Virus record (IMG/VR): IMGVR_UViG_3300033066_001908
Strand: one strand, 5' to 3'
Origin: a virus
Lineage: Duplodnaviria; Heunggongvirae; Uroviricota; Caudoviricetes
DNA length: 64,000 nt
Each line of letters starts with the position of its first letter. Within the stretch, counting starts at the first letter, position 1. Both the position numbers and the translations under genes were made by a program. Below, one piece after another: positions 4,856-57,287 of the stretch. Below the pieces are notes generated by a model. That model made no database searches. It was not told where the DNA came from and saw nothing but the letters and a program-made list of their open reading frames with translations.

Positions 4856-6529
4856 CTACTCATCTATTGCCAGTAGCTGCAAGCCGTTTCGGAGACGAAC
4901 TGCTCGTCGACCGAAGCCAACTGGCAGTGCCGCACGACGTTCCACTGGTGGGAAAATCCGGACACGTCCGGACATTGGCACTTCTGCCTGTGTGAGTTCT
5001 CCGACACCCTGCAGGATTCCTTCCGCGTCAAAACTAACCGTGACAAAGCGGTCGTCTGGATTTCGTGAACTCAAGTAGATCCAGGTCAACGGCTCATCTA
5101 AATTGCCCCAAACCTCACCTATCTGCGGTCCGGTCGGATCCCAGATCACGTGTTCGCGTTCTGGGAACACAGGAAATTCTTCGTGCTCCCCGCCGGCTGA
5201 GGTCACCTGATCATCCGGTAGCGCTCGCTCCCAGGCGGCCACTGTTACCAGTGCGCACACGCACCAACGCGCTTGTTCCCGATAATCGGGATTGACCCCA
5301 AGCAGTCCAAAAGGCACATCATTCGCAATGGTATGTAACAGCGCGCTGGGTATGTCCCGCCGAGAACCATTTTCGTCAATATACGCGCCACGCAAGTCCG
5401 CGTTCTCATCAATAAGCGACCAACGTGTATCAGCAAGTGCTAAGCTCATAGTCAGACTCATTTGATCGGCCGTGATGTCGTAACCGTATCCGGGCTGATT
5501 CTCCGCTGACTGCATATGCGCCTGGATACGTTGCGCGTAATCGATCTGGCCAGCCAGGATGTCCACGTCCATCAGGGAAGTAACCTCCGGCCTTGGTGGA
5601 ATGTCTCCCAGCATCGCGTGCTCGATGACAGTGTGCATCGAGACAAATGTACGTGAACTGTTATCGTGAAACACAGTCAGACTTGGTTCGTTCTGCACAG
5701 CTGTCACGGCGCCGTGGGCAGCTCGACGGCACAAATCAAACGCCGCATACTCCGGCAGCTCCGGAATGTCGCGCATCAATCGTGAAAACGAATTACACAA
5801 GGCCTGCCACAAAATGATACCGATGTGCATGCGGCGGCTCTCAGCGGTAGTGCCTGGCGAGACAACCGCACCGCTATAGATCCGCTGATATTGCTGGGTC
5901 AGTGTGACCAATTCGGAGCGGAAAATTGCAGAGAACCCCGAGTACCGATAACGATCAATGTTTGACATCGGCACAGTGTATGTCATTCCAGGGAATAACT
6001 TTCCGACCACATCGTTCGTGATGATCGTGATTGAATCATGATCGGTGTGATAGATCCGCATGGCTTGCGCCAACAGACACCATGTCGCGTCGGAGAACTG
6101 CTGCTCTGTCACCTCCGGGTTTGGCATATTGTTAGGAAGCACGACGTTTTGCACCGTCTCCATGATCCATCGCTTGTACTCATAAAACAGTTCTGGCGTG
6201 TAAAGGTCTTCACCGGAATTGTTCCGCGAGATCAGGGTGTCGCGAGCGTTCGCCGCGATAGGCTTCAGGGTGCCAACCCAGAAGTCACAAACCGTAGCGG
6301 TTGTCGCTGAATACTGCTGTGCTAATTGCGATGTGTAGTCCGGGATATTGTCAGTCAGGATACCGTCAAACCAACGTGCTGGACGTCGCGGATTCAATTG
6401 AGTGCGGTTCGGATGTTGGCTGCTTGATCGCCCTGTACGAACACCCATGTTGTATGGCGAACGTGATTCATTCAGCTGCGCCCAGGCTCCGTAAATCCTG
6501 TTCCGTACTGTTCTGGTACCATTGGTCAT
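4856..6529 (-). CDS. Hypothetical protein (557 aa)
   Basis: Long clean ORF. The first start overlaps the upstream gene by 62 nt; an internal ATG at 6448 (MGVRTGRSS) would remove the overlap. Confidence 0.5.
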   Translation of the reverse strand: MTNGTRTVRNRIYGAWAQLNESRSPYNMGVRTGRSSSQHPNRTQLNPRRPARWFDGILTDNIPDYTSQLAQQYSATTATVCDFWVGTLKPIAANARDTLISRNNSGEDLYTPELFYEYKRWIMETVQNVVLPNNMPNPEVTEQQFSDATWCLLAQAMRIYHTDHDSITIITNDVVGKLFPGMTYTVPMSNIDRYRYSGFSAIFRSELVTLTQQYQRIYSGAVVSPGTTAESRRMHIGIILWQALCNSFSRLMRDIPELPEYAAFDLCRRAAHGAVTAVQNEPSLTVFHDNSSRTFVSMHTVIEHAMLGDIPPRPEVTSLMDVDILAGQIDYAQRIQAHMQSAENQPGYGYDITADQMSLTMSLALADTRWSLIDENADLRGAYIDENGSRRDIPSALLHTIANDVPFGLLGVNPDYREQARWCVCALVTVAAWERALPDDQVTSAGGEHEEFPVFPEREHVIWDPTGPQIGEVWGNLDEPLTWIYLSSRNPDDRFVTVSFDAEGILQGVGELTQAEVPMSGRVRIFPPVERRAALPVGFGRRAVRLRNGLQLLAIDE

Positions 6530-12353: not shown

Positions 12354-12941
12354 ATGCGCTGCGTGTATAGAATTATTGAAACTACAACCGGTAAATTTTA
12401 CATCGGTAGTACGGCAAACACCCAAACACGTTGGGCTTGGCATCGTACTACGTTGCACCGGGGCACGCATCACTCGAAACATCTCCAACGGGCTTGGAAC
12501 AAATACGGAGCCGACGCCTTTCGCTTTGAATCTGTTGAAGATTGCACCAACTGCGATGACGCCCAGCTACTGGCTAGAGAACAGGCTTGGTTAGACAAAA
12601 CAGAATGTTGGCGACGGGCGTTTGGTTTTAACATTTCCAAAAGTGCCGATGCGCCATGGCGAGGACGTAAACATTCAACCGAGACACGGGCCAAGATGTC
12701 AAAAACACGACAAGGTCGTGTGGTCTCAGAAGAAACAAAGCGCAAAATTGCCCAAAGTTTGAGTGGACGTAAACGACCAACTGAAGTGGTCGAGAAAATG
12801 CGGGCAAGTCTGCAGGGTCGAAAACTCACAGAAGAACACAAAGCCAACATCGGGCGTAGTGGGTTAGGTCGAGTCGTAACAGAAGCCACAAGAAATAAAA
12901 TTGCGGCTGCACGTCGCGGACAGAAAGCAGTCAATGCCTGA
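12354..12941 (+). CDS. GIY-YIG homing endonuclease with NUMOD3-like repeats (I-TevI-like)
   Basis: N-terminal VYRIIETTTGKFYIGST...R...N.. is the GIY-YIG core. Three HSTETRAKMSKTRQGR / SEETKRKIAQSLSGRK / TEEHKANIGRSGLGR repeats are NUMOD3-like DNA-binding motifs. It sits freestanding between the MTase and GT genes. Confidence 0.75.
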   Translation: MRCVYRIIETTTGKFYIGSTANTQTRWAWHRTTLHRGTHHSKHLQRAWNKYGADAFRFESVEDCTNCDDAQLLAREQAWLDKTECWRRAFGFNISKSADAPWRGRKHSTETRAKMSKTRQGRVVSEETKRKIAQSLSGRKRPTEVVEKMRASLQGRKLTEEHKANIGRSGLGRVVTEATRNKIAAARRGQKAVNA

Positions 12942-24908: not shown

Positions 24909-26552
24909 TCAATCCCAGCGATCGATCTTGTAATCGGACACCAGCCCGCGCGCGGTGACACGCACGAACAGGTTCCAGTTGTCACTGCTGCTGCACATGA
25001 TCAGCCCCGCAGCATGGTCTTCCTTGAGGCCTTCCAGGGTATTAGCTCGGGAATAGGACTCAATCACGCTTCGGACGCCGTGGAACTCGTTCCGCAGCAC
25101 TGTGGGGAAGAGACACAGACTCGGACTCCTGGTCTCTTTGGCACCCTTCAGGATGAAGATCGCACGACGGCCCTGGTGTGAGCAATCGTCTTCATTTCGC
25201 CAGGCATACGGACCCAGGCAGATCGCATCAACTTCGACGTAATCACCGCCCCGCAGGGACATCTGGTACGCCGGAGCCCCCGTGGGCCACAGATACCACG
25301 ACACCGGGTTACGGAACTCTTCCGTGTCCCACTGGATAATTGGCGGCGCGGCAGGATCCACAGCAGTCACCAAAGCCCCATAGCAGGAACTGCTGTGAGG
25401 CGCCAGCACTTCGATCTTATCAGCGTTCTCAAGTGCCGTTTGGCGGAACTTGACCCACGTGATCGTCTGTGCAGGCATCTTGATGTCCTGCGGAGTCTGT
25501 GGGGTCACGCGGGCGCCCTTCGGCTTAACATCACCAAACACACCCGTACCGGTCGCCTGGGGCGATTCCCGGCCAGGCCGGGGCACCCAGAGGGCCTGGA
25601 TGTCGGACAGTCGGGCAAACCGCCGCTTGAGCGAACCAGCGGCCCCCAGCTTCTCCACGACGTTTTCCGCCTGCTTGATCGTCCCGGCAGACGGCGCCAC
25701 CTGCGGACGCTGATACTGCAACGGGTGCATCTTCTCCGCAAACCGCTTCGCGATCGCGTTGAAATCCATCCCCGCAAGAATGTCTTCCAACAAGGTGCCG
25801 ATCATCGATGACCGCGGGTGACAGAAGCCGTCCGGAGCCAGCGCGATCGCGTACCAGACCACATTGGCCCTGTGTTTACCGTCCGCAGCTTCATACAGCC
25901 GTTTCAGTTCCAGCAGCCACGTCGCTTGGCCCAGCACCTTCTCACCACAATAGAGCGCGTCCGCTTCCAGGATCTTCACAGCCTGTTCGAGCTGTGGGAT
26001 CGAGAACTCTGACAACGCCAGCATCATGTTCTTGTGGTCTTCCTTCTTGGCCGCCGCGACCTGGAAGGGAGATAGGATTGCGTGTTTGTACATCCGACCA
26101 CCCGTTGCAGGGTACCGAATGGACAGGTGATGCCACGGACCAGTGACTGGCTCGCCGCAGACGTCCTTCTCGGGAACGAACACACCCGTCACCTTGGCCT
26201 TGCGGATTGCAGTGATCAGAGCCTGGACCGGAGCACAAAGTTCAGGCGGCGCGTCTTCCATGTCCCAAAGGACCGGAGAGGCGCATCCTTCATTGTCCAA
26301 AACAACCAAACCCGCAAACCGTTCAATGAACCGGCGGCAGGCATGACAGTTGTGATGTTGTCGTCGATCTTCCGGCAACCAGGACAGGTATTTGCCCCAG
26401 AGATCTTCGACATCAGTCGTGAACATCGGCAGCGTGGCTTGTTCCGTATTGGTCATGAATCGTCGCTGCACATTCGCGAGGTACATGTCGTACTCGCGAT
26501 CACTGCCCACTGCTGCTGCCGGTTGCGCTGGGACTGTTGCTCGTCTCGCCAT
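24909..26552 (-). CDS. Large conserved-looking hypothetical protein (~547 aa from MARRATVPAQ)
   Basis: Long clean ORF with a HHNCHACRRF Cys/His cluster near the N-terminus. No family recognised. Confidence 0.5.
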   Translation of the reverse strand: MARRATVPAQPAAAVGSDREYDMYLANVQRRFMTNTEQATLPMFTTDVEDLWGKYLSWLPEDRRQHHNCHACRRFIERFAGLVVLDNEGCASPVLWDMEDAPPELCAPVQALITAIRKAKVTGVFVPEKDVCGEPVTGPWHHLSIRYPATGGRMYKHAILSPFQVAAAKKEDHKNMMLALSEFSIPQLEQAVKILEADALYCGEKVLGQATWLLELKRLYEAADGKHRANVVWYAIALAPDGFCHPRSSMIGTLLEDILAGMDFNAIAKRFAEKMHPLQYQRPQVAPSAGTIKQAENVVEKLGAAGSLKRRFARLSDIQALWVPRPGRESPQATGTGVFGDVKPKGARVTPQTPQDIKMPAQTITWVKFRQTALENADKIEVLAPHSSSCYGALVTAVDPAAPPIIQWDTEEFRNPVSWYLWPTGAPAYQMSLRGGDYVEVDAICLGPYAWRNEDDCSHQGRRAIFILKGAKETRSPSLCLFPTVLRNEFHGVRSVIESYSRANTLEGLKEDHAAGLIMCSSSDNWNLFVRVTARGLVSDYKIDRWD

Positions 26553-26943
26553 TTTGTTCTTCCTTTTTGGTGTCGGCCGTCTCGGGCCAAGGGATACAAA
26601 CAGGTTCGTGGCGCGGATCTTTGCAGACCAAGCACACAAACACGCGTCCAGTTTGGACGAACTCATTGCCTTCTTCACTACCGATCCAGCTAGTATATCC
26701 GTTCAGTTTCCAACGGAAACCAACGATCCAGCCCTTAAACTGTGGGACGTCCTTCGGACGCCACTCATATTGATGCCGGTTATTCCGCCATCGAGTGCTT
26801 TCGTCTTCACCTTCACGCGGCACATACACACGCTCCATGATCTGCGTGCATTTTACCCACTTGCCCATCACAGCCCGCTGAGCTTCGACACTCAGCGGGG
26901 CTTTCATCTTCTTCCGAATCACGGGAGCCATCAGCAGGTCCAT
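26500..26943 (-). CDS. Hypothetical protein (147 aa)
   Basis: ORF with a CLVCKDPRHEPVC pair. Confidence 0.4.
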   Translation of the reverse strand: MDLLMAPVIRKKMKAPLSVEAQRAVMGKWVKCTQIMERVYVPREGEDESTRWRNNRHQYEWRPKDVPQFKGWIVGFRWKLNGYTSWIGSEEGNEFVQTGRVFVCLVCKDPRHEPVCIPWPETADTKKEEQNGETSNSPSATGSSSGQ

Positions 26944-46167: not shown

Positions 46168-46395
46168 TCATCGCCCAAACATCACGAGAATCGACAGCCA
46201 CTGCGCGACCAGAAAACAGAGCGGGCAGCCAATGACCATCATGATAAAACCGTACGAGCCTGCGCTAGGGCCTTTGCCGTCACAGATGTGCCTGAGGTAG
46301 GCATACCAAAGCAGCGCGGCCACCCACCCAACGATGGTCGAGATGAGGAACATCGTGTTTACCGACAGAACAGCCAACATAAGAACCCCAGACAT
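46168..46395 (-). CDS. Small two-TM membrane protein (75 aa)
   Basis: MSGVLMLAVLSVNTMFLISTIVGWVAALLWYAY ... FIMMVIGCPLCFLVAQWLSILVMFG, two hydrophobic helices. Confidence 0.4.
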   Translation of the reverse strand: MSGVLMLAVLSVNTMFLISTIVGWVAALLWYAYLRHICDGKGPSAGSYGFIMMVIGCPLCFLVAQWLSILVMFGR

Positions 46396-46565
46396 GCAAA
46401 TAGAAATGCCACCACAAAAGGAAAACAGCCGCGGCGTCTACCGACACGCTGCAGCTGTTCAAACATAACCCGCTCACGCTCCATCTTCATGAGTGTAGCG
46501 GCTGTGCCAGGACAGGCCGCCCGGTGTGGGCGGCCGTAGCACCAGATGTATTCGCGTTGATCCAT
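46359..46565 (-). CDS. Small protein with C-terminal TM helix (68 aa)
   Basis: The ATG overlaps the SPFH gene stop (TAATG). C-terminal FPFVVAFLFACLGFLCWLF. Confidence 0.35.
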   Translation of the reverse strand: MDQREYIWCYGRPHRAACPGTAATLMKMERERVMFEQLQRVGRRRGCFPFVVAFLFACLGFLCWLFCR

Positions 46566-47464
46566 TACTTCTTTTCGTCCAGGTCATTCATGTTAATGAG
46601 CGGGACGGAGTTCCCAGTGAACTTCGGCAAAGCCCCATTCCACTTCTGAGTCATCAGGTAGTGAGTCAATGCCGGCGTCACTGATTCTGCCAGGATCTTA
46701 TTGCCCTGTGCCTTCAGCTCGATCTGTTTCAATTCCGCTTCAGCTTCGATGATCACGTTACGGGCGCGCCCTTTGGCATTCTCGGTTTCCTGATCGGCCT
46801 CGGCTTTCGACTGGGCCACCTTGTTCTGCGCCTGGATCGCAAGCTGTTGAGCCGTAATGGTCGCGTCGATACTGGCCTGAATCTTTTGCTCAGGTCTTGG
46901 TGCCGAGGCGAACGACAGCATGTGGATCACGATACCGTATTCCGCCATCTGTTTATTCAGCTCAGCTTTGGCCTTGTCGAGCATATCGCTCTTGCCTTCA
47001 CCAAGAATGGCCATCGTGTCCATCTTTTCGGCTTCACGTGCCAGCGCCTCCCGCACATGGTTACGCAACCATTGGTGGGAAATGTTGTCGATGTCACGCC
47101 GCAACTTATCGAACAGCACCGGCACCTTCTCGTCCTGGATCTCATACGTCAGCCCCACATCGACATTGATCTGCGCCCCCTTCGAGCTGGAGATCATGAT
47201 GGACTCGTCGACCGGGTTGCCCTTCGCGTCCTTGCTTTCCTTGCCCCAGAGCACGTTCTGCTCGAAGACAGGAAATTCGTGAATCGATTCGAACAGTGGA
47301 TTGTACCAGGCTCGGCCAACACCAATTGGCTTCGGATCGATGCCCTTGTGCTTACCGCTGGCATTCACACGCACACCGACATTACCTGAATCGATCCACT
47401 GGTAAGTACAACCGGTGAACAGCAGGCAAACCGTCGCAACAATCAACAGAGGGATACGCTTCAC
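46565..47464 (-). CDS. SPFH/Band-7 (prohibitin/HflK-like) domain lipoprotein
   Basis: Start taken at GTG 47464 (GGAGAG SD, overlaps the upstream stop as GTGA). Lipobox LLFTGC. The SPFH-type core runs from GNVGVRVNASG to the long Ala/Gln/Lys-rich coiled coil AQQLAIQAQNKVAQSKAEADQETENAKGRARNVIIEAEAELKQIELKAQGNKI. Confidence 0.65.
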   Translation of the reverse strand: MKRIPLLIVATVCLLFTGCTYQWIDSGNVGVRVNASGKHKGIDPKPIGVGRAWYNPLFESIHEFPVFEQNVLWGKESKDAKGNPVDESIMISSSKGAQINVDVGLTYEIQDEKVPVLFDKLRRDIDNISHQWLRNHVREALAREAEKMDTMAILGEGKSDMLDKAKAELNKQMAEYGIVIHMLSFASAPRPEQKIQASIDATITAQQLAIQAQNKVAQSKAEADQETENAKGRARNVIIEAEAELKQIELKAQGNKILAESVTPALTHYLMTQKWNGALPKFTGNSVPLINMNDLDEKK

Positions 47465-47658
47465 TTGACTCTCCAAATCCAACGAAACACGTGATAGCCG
47501 CAGACCACAAGGACTACGACTCCGACACAACCGAACCTGAACTCGACGTCCGAGTCAGAATTCAAAAGCTCAACCATCGTCGACCAGACAATCATGAAAA
47601 GGACTGCCGCAATCGCCGACTCAACAATCCGAACCGAAATTGGATACTTGTTCTTCAC
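47461..47658 (-). CDS. Small membrane protein upstream of SPFH gene (possible NfeD-like partner)
   Basis: 65 aa with two hydrophobic segments (AIAAVLFMIVWSTMV; CVGVVVLVVCGYHVF). It is translationally coupled on both sides (ATGA/GTGA). Confidence 0.4.
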   Translation of the reverse strand: MKNKYPISVRIVESAIAAVLFMIVWSTMVELLNSDSDVEFRFGCVGVVVLVVCGYHVFRWIWRVK

Positions 47659-48491
47659 TCGTCTGCCTCAACTTCCCTACGAGGTCGCAACTGGATCGCC
47701 CGGCCAGCCATAGGGCTTGGACGCGGATCGGGCTGCTCGGCCCGGCTGCATTCACTTTCAACAATATGGTCAAAGATCTGCTGCCAGGGAATATCGCGGT
47801 GCCTCGCCATCCTGGAAGTTTGCGCGTCAGTCAGGGTGAACAGGATGCACCGGTCATTGAAGTATGTAACGGGTAAAGCGTCCCTGTGGATCAATTCCCC
47901 GCGATCATTCTCGATCGTGACCGACTCAGACCCATCCGGATTCGTGATATACGACGTAACGCGGCCTCGCTGAACGAGATCAGGCGTTTCGATACCTGCT
48001 TCGTACTGTGGCGTCTGGCTATTGTCGTGGATTGGCACATCCACCGGATCGCCGTTATACGACATGACCCGGCGTGTTTGAGGCTCGGACAGACCCAGGT
48101 TCGCCCGCGCGATCGCCGGATTTGTAAGATCCGCCAGATTAGCTGTCGCGGTAAGTACAGTTCCTGCCTCTTGAGCTTGTCGCAACTCTCGGACCTCAGT
48201 GGCCAAGGCCTCAATCCGATTCAGCATCTCGCGGGTCAGATCCACGCCGCCACTAACAAGCTCGCCGGCTCGGTATGTCCCCGCTTGGCGAATTGCAGGC
48301 CCTTGCTGGGCCTGCAACATCTCCTGCGTGCGGGAATGTCGTTCATCGTCCGCCCGCCGCGCGGCAATTTGGGCAGCCTGTTCCTGCTGACATTGCTGCA
48401 GCCAATTCCGAAACTGATTCCCGGACGGTGCTCTTGGTGGGACAATCCCACTAACAGGCCGGGGCGGGTCATCATTCTTCCAGAAAGCCAT
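47655..48491 (-). CDS. Hypothetical protein with tail-fibre-like ARANLGL motif
   Basis: TATANLADLTNPAIARANLGL resembles the conserved N-terminal motif of phage tail-fibre proteins. The remainder is unassigned. Confidence 0.4.
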   Translation of the reverse strand: MAFWKNDDPPRPVSGIVPPRAPSGNQFRNWLQQCQQEQAAQIAARRADDERHSRTQEMLQAQQGPAIRQAGTYRAGELVSGGVDLTREMLNRIEALATEVRELRQAQEAGTVLTATANLADLTNPAIARANLGLSEPQTRRVMSYNGDPVDVPIHDNSQTPQYEAGIETPDLVQRGRVTSYITNPDGSESVTIENDRGELIHRDALPVTYFNDRCILFTLTDAQTSRMARHRDIPWQQIFDHIVESECSRAEQPDPRPSPMAGRAIQLRPRREVEADE

Positions 48492-48499
48492 ACGACCTC

Positions 48500-48778
48500 C
48501 TAACAGGTCACAACACGAGTGGTACGAAGCACCACACAGCGTTTGCCAATGCGCGAGGCCACTTCTTCAGCCTTCGCAACCATTTGCTCCCGAAAGGCCA
48601 TGGCCACCGGGTACAAAGCCTCGAACCGGGAAAACTGTTCGCGAAGTACACGCTCAGCAATAACCGGATCAAACTTCATCAAATCTGCGACAGGCGGACC
48701 CTTCTCATAGTGAACGCCGTCATTGCTCGGACAAGCCATCATTGACCTTTCTCTTCCATCAGCTCGGCTCCGGCACAC
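48500..48778 (-). CDS. Hypothetical protein
   Basis: ORF. Probable start MMACPSNDG. Confidence 0.35.
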   Translation of the reverse strand: MCRSRADGRERSMMACPSNDGVHYEKGPPVADLMKFDPVIAERVLREQFSRFEALYPVAMAFREQMVAKAEEVASRIGKRCVVLRTTRVVTC

Positions 48779-49179
48779 ATGTACCAGAGCTTTGCTGAAG
48801 CTCTGTTAGGGTGCAGATTCTCGTCCAAAACCTTACAACAGATCGCGACCGCGATCAGGACCGGACACTCGTGCTGGTCCTTGATCACGTCCTCGATAAT
48901 CGGTTTCAGCTCCGACATCTGCTGCAGATACTCACTGGTATGCGTACCTGCCATGAGCACCTTTTTCACATGAAACATCTTAGCTCGAAGAGCTTCAAGT
49001 TTCACGCTAATGCGACGGGTCTCTTCCGGGGTCGCCATTTGGGCGCCGGCTGCGGTTCCTCCCGCTGTTCCTGCAATTTGAGCCGGCGCGGTTTGACCGT
49101 CTTGAATGACGTGCGAACTGCCAACCGGTCCAGGATCTTCTTGATGTGTTTGGGATCCGTTTTCAGACAAAACGCACAC
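48739..49179 (-). CDS. Hypothetical protein
   Basis: ORF. Probable start MATPEETRR at about 49038. Confidence 0.35.
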   Translation of the reverse strand: MCVLSENGSQTHQEDPGPVGSSHVIQDGQTAPAQIAGTAGGTAAGAQMATPEETRRISVKLEALRAKMFHVKKVLMAGTHTSEYLQQMSELKPIIEDVIKDQHECPVLIAVAICCKVLDENLHPNRASAKLWYMCAGAELMEEKGQ

Positions 49180-56251: not shown

Positions 56252-56717
56252 ATTTCCGCTCTTCCTCCACTGCTAGTCCGAGCAAGCGTTCGACATCACT
56301 CGGAGTGCAGGTCAGTTTTGCTTGGTTCAGGTAGTACGGCATGTCCTTGTTGTCCAGCCTGATGTTGGGCACCGTGGCTTCGTACAGGACATCCAGCACG
56401 GCGATCTTATGTCGTTGGTCGACGGCAAGCAACTTAGCGCCGGTTTCCACGTCATTAACTTTGACAGAACAGACCTGATAGCCGTCATCCGTGATCATGC
56501 AGTGAACGAAGTCGCTATTGATCACAACCACCTCACGGTACTGGCCATCGTGCTCGTAGATCATGTTGATGCCGGGAACAATCACATCGCCGAGTGAATA
56601 CACTTCGGCCATTGGTTCAGCGATTTGCACAGTGTGGCCTTTGGTAACAAAGATCTCGATCGACGGTGTGGCAAAACACAAACCGGCTAGACAAACGAAA
56701 ACGAGCAGAAATTTCAT
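56181..56717 (-). CDS. Secreted protein (signal peptide), hypothetical
   Basis: Start taken at MKFLLVFVCLAGLCFA|TPSIE. The 3' end overlaps the sulfotransferase start by about 70 nt in another frame. Confidence 0.45.
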   Translation of the reverse strand: MKFLLVFVCLAGLCFATPSIEIFVTKGHTVQIAEPMAEVYSLGDVIVPGINMIYEHDGQYREVVVINSDFVHCMITDDGYQVCSVKVNDVETGAKLLAVDQRHKIAVLDVLYEATVPNIRLDNKDMPYYLNQAKLTCTPSDVERLLGLAVEEERKYVRNRDRGGLSSERHYLLSSTVE

Positions 56718-56743
56718 GGTTTTCTCCAGGGTGGAAATGACAA

Positions 56744-56763
56744 GAGCCCGGTTGCCCGGGCTC
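56744..56763 (-). terminator. GC-rich hairpin terminator (GAGCCCGG-TTGC-CCGGGCTC)
   Basis: Perfect 8-bp stem, and the minus strand downstream is TTGTCATTTCC. It sits between the stop of 56790..57287 and the next start. Confidence 0.5.
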
Positions 56764-56769
56764 CTGAAT

Positions 56770-56790
56770 CTTATTAGGAACAATAAACTC
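56770..56790. promoter_or_regulatory. Conserved AT-rich palindromic 20-mer, copy C (CTTATTAGGAACAATAAACTC)
   Basis: It abuts the TAG stop of 56790..57287 and is followed by the terminator hairpin. Same arrangement as copy A. Confidence 0.35.
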
Positions 56791-57287
56791 TACGCACCGA
56801 TCTGCGCGTTCTTGTTCGCGGAAGCCGCATCGAAGGCAGAGGCATAGTGAACTTTGATCTGCACATCGGCGTTTGGCAGGTAGTTGTGCGAACGTGCGAT
56901 CGCACAAGCAACTGTCGCAGTCTTGGCCAGCACGGTGTTGGAAAGCAGGCTGTTGCCGCCGTCCTGGGCCGGCGCCAGCATGTCTCCCACCTGGAAGGCA
57001 GATGCCACGCAGCCGGTTTGCCACAGCGACATGGGACTGGTATCCACTTCGATCGCCGTATCTGCGGAGTCACCCGCAAAGTGCTGCGACACTGCCACAC
57101 CCAGAAACTTGGCCGCGAAGGCCGCCTGTGTGGTTGCCAGGTCTGTGGTCCATGTAAACGCATTCGCAGGTTTGCACTGGCCGGTTGCAGTGTCCAACCA
57201 GACCAAATCACCCACCTTGATCGCCGTAGATGACGCGACGGGGACAGTGTGGATGCTTTGCTCGCCACCTTTGTATACGTTCGACAT
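56790..57287 (-). CDS. Small protein followed by strong terminator; possibly an abundant structural/decoration protein
   Basis: 165-aa ORF rich in Ala/Thr/Val (beta-rich composition). The motif plus terminator immediately downstream suggests a highly expressed gene. No family recognised. Confidence 0.4.
   Translation of the reverse strand: MSNVYKGGEQSIHTVPVASSTAIKVGDLVWLDTATGQCKPANAFTWTTDLATTQAAFAAKFLGVAVSQHFAGDSADTAIEVDTSPMSLWQTGCVASAFQVGDMLAPAQDGGNSLLSNTVLAKTATVACAIARSHNYLPNADVQIKVHYASAFDAASANKNAQIGA

Follow-up and report, generated by a model that had tools for sequence, protein, structure and literature searches.

An SPFH lipoprotein and a small hairpin membrane protein in a Caudoviricetes sequence: a divergent member of a common phage gene pair

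Introduction

Which genes of a tightly packed minus-strand cluster in the virus record IMGVR_UViG_3300033066_001908 (Duplodnaviria; Heunggongvirae; Uroviricota; Caudoviricetes) belong together, and what might they do at the host membrane? The cluster lies at positions 46168-48491 of a 64,000-nucleotide (nt) stretch of this record, hereafter called the window. An earlier note, made from the sequence alone, read its five genes as one translationally coupled unit in which a lipoprotein of the SPFH/Band_7 type, considered rare in phages, is accompanied by small, perhaps NfeD-like or holin-like membrane proteins. The SPFH lipoprotein and one small membrane partner stand up to closer analysis; the rarity, the NfeD- or holin-like character of the partner and the five-gene unit do not. 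The locus is best described as an ordinary, divergent member of a very common and functionally unstudied phage pair, an SPFH lipoprotein with a membrane hairpin, and the remaining three genes as lineage-specific neighbors without a conserved link to that pair. We think it somewhat more probable than its opposite that two genes form the functional core, as a diverged version of the pair represented by the protein families PHROG 1130 and PHROG 200, and that their products build a periplasmic cage on the inner membrane. The two genes are:

47461-47658, minus strand: p65, 65 amino acids (aa), GTG start
46565-47464, minus strand: SPFH/Band_7 lipoprotein, 299 aa, GTG start

The SPFH lipoprotein

The 299-aa protein is an SPFH/Band_7 lipoprotein with an SPFH fold, as had been proposed, and Pfam, PHROG 200, structure prediction and Foldseek agree on this point. 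Pfam Band_7 (PF01145) matches residues 24-222 (E = 3.1e-22), its score of 79.9 bits lying well above the gathering cutoff of 23.6, and the PHROG 200 profile, annotated "lipoprotein," covers residues 1-297 (209 bits, E = 2.3e-61). An AlphaFold2 (AF2) model built on 26 relatives has a mean predicted local distance difference test score (pLDDT) of 81 and shows an alpha/beta SPFH region (residues 20-190, strands at 20-109) followed by one long coiled-coil helix (193-261); the C-terminal motif W275-x-G277-x-L279-P280 is invariant among the SPFH relatives aligned. Full-length Foldseek matches in the PDB include human prohibitin, HflK/C (with or without FtsH), erlin1/2, stomatin and QmcA-YbbJ at E = 3e-14 to 1e-10, with matches including flotillin extending to 1e-7, and a sequence profile reaches HflK, prohibitin-2 and QmcA at approximately 1e-5.

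The signal peptide carries the LLFTGC lipobox that had been noticed earlier: it reads MKRIPLLIVATVCLLFTG-C, with LFTG-C at Cys19 and a hydrophobic segment at residues 4-20, and lipidation is predicted. The Gly-Cys of the lipobox is kept in 24-25 of 28 SPFH relatives. The SPFH core starts about six residues past Cys19, and this spacing is typical: the [SP]G[NYH]VG core pattern was located in 22 of 24 lipobox relatives, and in all 22 it follows the Cys by 4-6 residues. With so short a spacing, the SPFH domain should rest directly on the periplasmic surface of the membrane.

This architecture invites comparison with HflK/HflC of Escherichia coli. The two share SPFH1-SPFH2-coiled-coil organization, a full-length fold match and, by prediction for the window protein, a periplasmic SPFH domain; HflK is also the best sequence-level neighbor of the window protein in both the PDB and NCBIfam. 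HflK/C gates FtsH, which degrades lambda CII. It could be supposed that the phage cage mimics HflK/C by capturing or excluding host FtsH, altering the turnover of membrane or phage proteins; this is one particular form that the role in the explanation we favor could take. The shared orientation, the HflK matches and the fold matches to HflK/C-FtsH complexes all speak for such mimicry. However, the NCBIfam HflK match (E = 9.6e-11) falls far below cutoff, at 41.6 bits versus 159.4 for TIGR01933 and 28 versus 660 for NF008181; prohibitin, erlin and stomatin match equally well; and most carriers of the family are lytic phages without a CII-type decision. The window also has a single homo-type SPFH gene in place of a K/C heteropair, and the N-terminal transmembrane (TM) helix of HflK/C is absent from its lipid-anchored protein, the TM element apparently coming from a separate hairpin. 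With sub-cutoff scores and a lipobox rather than a TM helix as anchor, the protein falls outside the HflK/HflC equivalogs, and we regard HflK/C mimicry as unlikely.

A hairpin membrane protein encoded upstream

The gene directly upstream of the SPFH gene encodes p65, a protein with two hydropathy-predicted TM segments. Both of its tails are basic (+3 each) and the intervening loop, ELLNSDSDVEFRF, is acidic (-3), a charge pattern that under the positive-inside rule predicts an N-in/C-in hairpin with the conserved loop in the periplasm. Contigs were fetched for eight SPFH relatives, plus one (L093) found through a homolog of p278, the protein encoded upstream of p65; L numbers denote relative loci throughout. 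In L005, L006, L007, L009, L010 and L011, a two-TM open reading frame (ORF) of 62-70 aa, orthologous to p65, either stops at the SPFH start or runs into it, and the loop motif (M/L)LNG(D/S)xx(E/D)(F/V) is common to p65 and all six of these ORFs; L008 is the exception, with no upstream hairpin ORF. The closest relatives are L093 (SPFH protein 91%, p65 77%, p278 53% identical to the window) and L009 (81%, 53% and approximately 47%, respectively).

A wider sample gave the same arrangement. An alignment-based scan of IMG/VR, needed because a single-protein scan returned nothing, recovered 80 further loci, and 28 non-redundant loci (31-81% SPFH identity) remained after removal of near-duplicates. 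A small two-TM ORF abuts the SPFH start in 21 of these 28, where an abutting ORF was defined as one with two hydrophobic segments ending -60 to +45 nt from the SPFH start; judging by how densely such ORFs occur over the rest of these strands, 0.008 would be expected per locus. The corresponding binomial P of 1e-38 is nominal, as the loci are not phylogenetically independent.

The same pair is found in annotated phages: gp42/43 of Stenotrophomonas phage Piffle, gp9/10 of Desulfovibrio phage ProddE, gp11/12 of Escherichia phage P88, and gp30/31 of Shigella virus Moo19, the last annotated as similar to N4 gp19 and gp20. In phage K and phiCbK, the upstream membrane protein is instead a 1-TM protein of 102 aa and a 3-TM protein of 116 aa, respectively. 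Partners from known phages belong to PHROG 1130, annotated "membrane protein" (E values from 1e-25 to 3e-5), and have no Pfam family. The N4 gp19/gp20-type pairs (those of Moo19, P88 and ProddE) have the same gene order and stop/start overlap as the window, an SPFH lipoprotein of approximately 275-300 aa whose Cys stands, as in the window, a few residues ahead of the core, and an upstream hairpin of 55-80 aa with the loop motif and basic C-tail of p65. They differ in that the window SPFH protein is at most 38% identical to that of any deposited phage; that the residue following the lipobox Cys (+2) is Thr, Ala, Tyr or Val in the window clade and Asp or Ser in theirs; and that p278 and the two genes downstream of the SPFH gene (p68 and p75) are unique to the window lineage.

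The relationship of p65 to the PHROG 1130-type partners was approached with a custom hidden Markov model (HMM) built from 19 partners outside the window clade, either PHROG-1130-type or positional, and run against a set of 1165 ORFs, which comprised every ORF of 40 aa or more in the window and in eight relatives. The L093 ortholog scored E = 1.3e-6, p65 itself 1.3e-3 (rank 3 of 1165) and the L009 ortholog 5e-3, so that the p65 clade took three of the top four places, and the loop motif aligned in register in all three. The other high-ranking match, a plus-strand ORF at 56563-56847 (E = 5.5e-4), was set aside as due to chance: the match is partial, the ORF contains only one hydrophobic stretch, and some of it overlaps an ORF on the minus strand. 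The equivalence of p65 to PHROG 1130-type partners in position and architecture is firm, since it has the position, the two-TM hairpin within the 55-80 aa range, and the loop motif; homology, as judged from these profile scores, is likely but not proven.

An NfeD-like character can be set aside. The profile of NfeD (Pfam PF01957) matched none of p65, p68 and p75 at E <= 0.1, and none of ten partner homologs. Nor is p65 NfeD-like in build, because 65 aa with two TM helices, leaving no more than some 15 residues outside the membrane at each end, offer no space for an oligonucleotide/oligosaccharide-binding (OB) fold. SPFH-NfeD operons, such as QmcA-YbbJ (PDB 8z5g) and archaeal stomatin-NfeD, do resemble the window in having a translationally linked gene for a small membrane protein. 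However, the partner in the window has no NfeD domain or OB-fold and is placed upstream, unlike the usual NfeD arrangement; and the SPFH domain of QmcA is cytoplasmic, whereas that of the window protein is predicted to be periplasmic.

Public gene callers had left the hairpin uncalled at L010:828-1016 and at L093:1444-1641, in the second case extending the SPFH gene upstream across the hairpin ORF. The small partner, which starts with GTG and overlaps its neighbors, is often missed in this way, and the family is probably under-annotated in databases.

Anchor type and membrane attachment

Across the 28 loci, the presence of the hairpin follows the type of membrane anchor on the SPFH protein. 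Of the 25 loci with a lipobox form, 20 have the hairpin, and in another three a single TM segment was detected in the partner. The hairpin is missing beside all three TM-anchored forms, in which the N-terminal TM anchor stays uncleaved and a lipobox is lacking (L008:5001-5879, L014:2929-3816, L046:2953-3831). On these small numbers, Fisher p is 0.017 or 0.003. One chromosomal homolog unites the two parts: L098:2731-3858, from a deltaproteobacterial metagenome-assembled genome (MAG; PNBD01000043.1), is a single ORF of 375 aa in which the hairpin leads into a third hydrophobic segment, containing a lipobox-like GGC, and then into the SPFH domain. Such a fusion makes topological sense only with an N-in/C-in hairpin, which ends in the cytoplasm, and a periplasmic SPFH domain. 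Further, dozens of prophage-type IMG/VR versions (L015-L038, L050-L092), many of them enteric, carry TGC-D-RVEPG with Asp at +2, the classical signal for Lol avoidance and inner-membrane retention in Enterobacteriaceae. Taken together, the charges of p65, the anchor complementarity, the L098 fusion and Asp at +2 suggest a TM element supplied in trans and a periplasmic complex on the inner membrane. The pairing rule, the lack of the hairpin in TM-anchored forms and the natural fusion were not found described in the literature searched, and the rule and its structural logic appear undescribed there.

Two observations on these loci may be recorded separately. L008 has two small two-TM ORFs downstream of its SPFH gene, at 6066-6251 and 6251-6523, and the L098 fusion sits chromosomally between dUTPase-like and M16-peptidase-like genes.

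We suggest that the SPFH protein would be exported and lipidated at Cys19, so that its SPFH domain lies flat against the cytoplasmic membrane from the periplasmic side, and that the long C-terminal coiled coil would drive oligomerization into a dome of the HflK/C or prohibitin type. The translationally coupled hairpin, predicted to be N-in/C-in and to present to the periplasm a conserved acidic loop (L-x-[SN]-x-x-[SD]-[DST]...G), would provide in trans what TM-anchored SPFH proteins have in cis, a TM element, and would thereby fix the cage to the inner membrane. In an infected cell or a lysogen, such a cage may enclose a patch of the inner membrane. Any biological role proposed for it is a guess; protection, stabilization or insulation of the membrane during infection, rather than lysis, would be our suggestion, with exclusion of superinfecting genomes, buffering of membrane-directed host responses, and gating of client access of the FtsH type as candidates.

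A different destination for the protein would lead to a different role, that of an outer-membrane or vesicle lipoprotein acting in lysogenic conversion or virulence, the upstream ORF being incidental. The window protein lacks Asp at +2, and the Piffle homolog is annotated as an outer-membrane lipoprotein. There is also a precedent in Pasteurella multocida PM0222, a prophage-borne SPFH-superfamily protein described as HflK/C-like, which is reported to be secreted in outer-membrane vesicles (OMVs) and to be needed for virulence (PMC9872710); its reported role as an OMV-borne TLR1/2 agonist belongs to interaction with the animal host rather than to phage biology (PMC9872710). However, the family is abundant in strictly lytic phages (N4-like, Kayvirus, phiCbK), some carriers infect Gram-positive hosts, which have no outer membrane, the tightly linked hairpin must sit in the cytoplasmic membrane, and many enteric versions have the inner-membrane retention signal. 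This reading therefore seems quite improbable.

Several points nevertheless weigh against a hairpin-anchored cage on the inner membrane descended from the PHROG 1130-PHROG 200 pair. In direct scans, neither p65 nor the L005 and L006 partners match PHROG 1130 at E <= 0.1, p65 being linked to that family through the custom profile and its position; an hhalign comparison of the p65 group with the distant partners gave E = 1.5e-3 but a probability of 17%; and the L005, L006, L007, L010 and L011 partners score only E = 3-5 against the custom HMM. The +2 residue is Thr in the window protein and Ala, Tyr or Val in close relatives, which would direct these proteins to the outer membrane by enterobacterial rules, rules that may not be those of the host. 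Several bacterial homologs encoded on chromosomes (L099-L103) are lipoproteins that have no hairpin ORF upstream. Only one fusion was found, and only three proteins make up the TM-anchored class. The phage K pair stands just downstream of the endolysin gene, with a terminator between. Lastly, the physical interaction, the oligomeric state and the membrane location are predictions drawn from sequence and modeled structure.

A broader generalization, that the pair is a distinct, NfeD-independent "split" SPFH system serving as a general inner-membrane insulator across phages, prophages and plasmids, is offered as a tentative and rather doubtful extension. If it were true, the pair could be a device, for example, to block the entry of superinfecting genomes or to blunt membrane-targeting immunity. 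More generally, the pair could reveal a general phage strategy for control of the host inner membrane, and, as a defined system of two components in which the SPFH protein has a minimal partner, it would lend itself to studies of how such cages are attached to membranes and how their content is selected.

Distribution of the pair

The description of SPFH proteins as rare in phages does not hold. Of 50,697 deposited phage records, 533 were recovered by tblastn with the window protein, at least 80% of the query being covered in 527, and the phage proteins have a PHROG family (200) of their own. Carriers include N4-like Schitoviridae, Kayvirus and other Herelleviridae, as well as phiCbK-like and crAss-like phages, temperate phages of the P2-like and Mu-like kinds, and roseophages. 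The pair thus occurs in approximately 1% of deposited phage genomes, including the N4-like and P2-like models, yet its function is unassigned. Homologs in deposited phages are 21-38% identical to the window protein, so the window contributes a divergent member to a large annotated family; megablast of 5 kb around the cluster against the same 50,697 records gave no match. A search of 5.8 billion proteins recovered 42 SPFH relatives at 33-100% identity, and among 185,579 bacterial and archaeal genomes scanned the relatives reached at most 41% identity, all in MAGs.

Bacterial genomes also harbor the phage version. DNA related to P88 gp11-gp12 is present in 714 of 5,426 complete E. coli genomes (approximately 13%), where the protein is named "SPFH domain-containing protein" by NCBI. 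It occupies 806 places, 389 on plasmids and 417 on chromosomes; with about half plasmid-borne, the module evidently also travels on plasmids or phage-plasmids. In the literature searched, neither phage SPFH lipoproteins nor N4 gp19/gp20 were the subject of a functional study, and a 2026 phage paper states that why an SPFH lipoprotein occurs in a phage genome "remains unclear" (PMC13239085).

Genomic context and lysis

A small protein with two TM helices and a basic C-tail is holin-like in outline, and it is reasonable to ask whether the pair is a lysis-timing device, the hairpin acting as holin or antiholin and the SPFH protein regulating hole formation or lysis inhibition. The position of the phage K pair, directly 3' of an endolysin gene, is in keeping with this, as is p75, another small two-TM protein in the cluster. 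However, no endolysin, lysozyme or amidase family was recorded in the window at 36.5-57.4 kb (approximately 10 kb either side of the cluster) or 1-16.5 kb, the stretch at 16.5-36.5 kb having been only partly scanned for lysis genes, and the small proteins of the cluster matched no holin family in PHROG or Pfam.

Relatives of the pair are found instead among replication and early genes: between DNA polymerase and exonuclease in ProddE, beside a primase-helicase in L011, near beta clamp and helicases in L007, and in the P2-type early region of P88. In Moo19 (L096 64-378), where the pair also sits among replication or early genes, it adjoins a gene related to superinfection exclusion that resembles P22 gp17, and in Piffle (L003 2871-3843; 6520 onward) it lies a few genes upstream of an rIIA-like gene. 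The partner is tied to the SPFH gene rather than to endolysin. A study of N4 lysis describes a signal-arrest-release (SAR) endolysin, a holin and spanins (gp60/60a/61), with gp19/gp20 unmentioned. We accordingly give little credence to a lysis-timing function, and the placement in a lysis cassette suggested earlier is not borne out. It is because lysis genes were not found nearby and the relatives have a replication or early context that we favor a membrane role during the infection phase over lysis control.

A link to abortive infection had also been raised, and gained no support: none of seven cluster proteins matched PADLOC-DB 2.0 at E <= 0.1.

Neighboring genes

The pair is flanked on the same strand by five further genes:

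48739-49038, minus strand: p99, upstream of p80, which it overlaps by an ATGA at 48739-48742
48500-48742, minus strand: p80, upstream of p278
47655-48491, minus strand: p278, 278 aa, ATG start at 48491 after AGGAGG
46359-46565, minus strand: p68, 68 aa, ATG start
46168-46395, minus strand: p75, 75 aa, ATG start

All five minus-strand ORFs of the cluster (p278, p65, the SPFH gene, p68 and p75) are present at the coordinates first given for them, and an independent gene caller called the same five on the public source contig, an 84-kb Logan assembly of SRR32380195. Their junctions had been described as ATGA, GTGA and TAATG overlaps. A GTGA does join the p278 stop to the p65 start and another the p65 stop to the SPFH start, and a TAATG joins the SPFH stop to the p68 start, but ATGA is absent from this range, and p68 and p75 overlap by 37 nt (22 nt from a second ATG at 46380), with no coupling of the 1- or 4-nt kind. 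Among 35 junctions on the contig, 13 overlap to some extent, 7 of them by 1 or 4 nt; three of those seven fall within the cluster. A promoter and terminator scan found no sigma-70-like promoter and no intrinsic terminator bounding the cluster on the coding strand, so the "operon" is not delimited; the five genes are embedded in a long co-directional array. No transfer RNA genes were found.

The proteins downstream of the SPFH gene have narrow distributions. The N-terminal part of p68 is basic and rich in Cys and Arg, and its only hydrophobic segment is C-terminal; p75 has two hydropathy-predicted TM segments. An exhaustive HMMER search of 1.84 billion representatives with p68 returned itself and two spurious repeat-type matches to proteins of 425-714 aa at E of about 1e-4, and a word-indexed homolog search with p75 returned itself only. 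Neither has a tblastn match in any relative locus, and in seven relatives with 60-79% SPFH identity the genes downstream of the SPFH gene are unrelated to p68 and p75. Codon scores are 0.037 for p68 and 0.056 for p75, next to 0.059 for the conserved p65, where the in-frame mean is 0.22 and the off-frame 95th percentile is -0.10; the scores of p68 and p75 are those of the best frame and exceed the off-frame 95th percentile, but stand near the 5th percentile of in-frame windows. A TraL match for p75 (NCBIfam, E = 0.0065) and antiporter noise for the small proteins were dismissed as sub-cutoff artifacts of TM composition. p68 and p75 may be real lineage-specific membrane proteins or may not be genes; either way, they are not conserved SPFH partners, so that of the three small membrane proteins first grouped with the SPFH lipoprotein, p65 alone is conserved.

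Upstream, p278 has no hydropathy-predicted TM segment. It has only two homologs among 5.8 billion proteins, both directly upstream of a p65-SPFH pair, and none in the seven more distant SPFH relatives (60-79% SPFH identity). The three sequences share the N-terminus MAFWKNDDPP, a coiled coil, an invariant ANLxDxxNPAxARANLG and a conserved C-terminal region of approximately 100 aa, separated by a variable middle region with indels. The ARANLGL motif, which had suggested a tail-fiber-like protein, is present and invariant in all three homologs, but the likeness to tail fibers is weak and confined to 30 residues (107-136; PHROG 2282, E = 7.7e-4; PHROG 1980, E = 7.5e-3), with no match beyond this short motif and no Pfam hit. 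The motif itself, at residues 117-133, stands invariant amid indel-rich surroundings. An AF2 model from the three-sequence alignment was unusable (pLDDT 43). We read p278 as a lineage-specific soluble protein outside the widely conserved module.

The gene order p99-p80-p278-p65-SPFH is kept in L093 and L009, where tblastn found p99 to be 82-84% and p80 45-53% identical to the window proteins; as both genes are syntenic in these two closest relatives, the conserved local block exceeds the cluster as first delimited. The L093 and L009 contigs end within or just after the SPFH gene.

Could all five genes nevertheless form one functional operon, with NfeD- or holin-like partners and possibly a role in abortive infection or membrane stress? 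The genes are contiguous and co-directional, with three overlaps of 1-4 nt, all were called independently, and the order p278-p65-SPFH is kept in the two nearest relatives. However, p278 is confined to three contigs, NfeD, holin and PADLOC profiles gave no match, and tight overlaps are common on this contig. A five-gene operon fails for p68 and p75 because they have no homologs, unrelated genes taking their place in L005-L011; lack of conservation of the small ORFs is what the earlier note itself had named as refuting its proposal. A single five-gene unit is therefore very improbable, and the pair of p65 and the SPFH lipoprotein is what is conserved.

Other features of the contig

Beyond the cluster, the contig (approximately 36,500-57,500 and 1-16,500) is unusually rich in sugar- and modification-related enzymes for a tightly packed, co-directional, phage-like array. 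These include two Polysacc_deac_1 proteins, Glycos_transf_2, TOD1_MUCI70, PhyH-like dioxygenases, several S-adenosylmethionine (SAM) methyltransferases and a Glyco_hydro_130-like protein, and a 1,319-aa multi-glycosyltransferase is encoded just outside the window start; most other ORFs there have no family. It is possible that this region is an island for modification of DNA or surface glycans.

A 589-aa protein encoded at 24909-26678 on the minus strand matches PHROG 1735, a family of unknown function, at E = 8.5e-94. Its homologs in 533 phage records, all annotated "hypothetical," include those of large Salmonella and Klebsiella myoviruses and of Rhizobium, Vibrio, Ralstonia and Brevibacillus phages. 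Finally, a homing-endonuclease-like gene of the GIY-YIG/NUMOD3 type lies on the opposite strand at approximately 12354-12941 (L108:3589-4176), within a short opposite-strand block of methyltransferase and Glyco_hydro_130-like genes.

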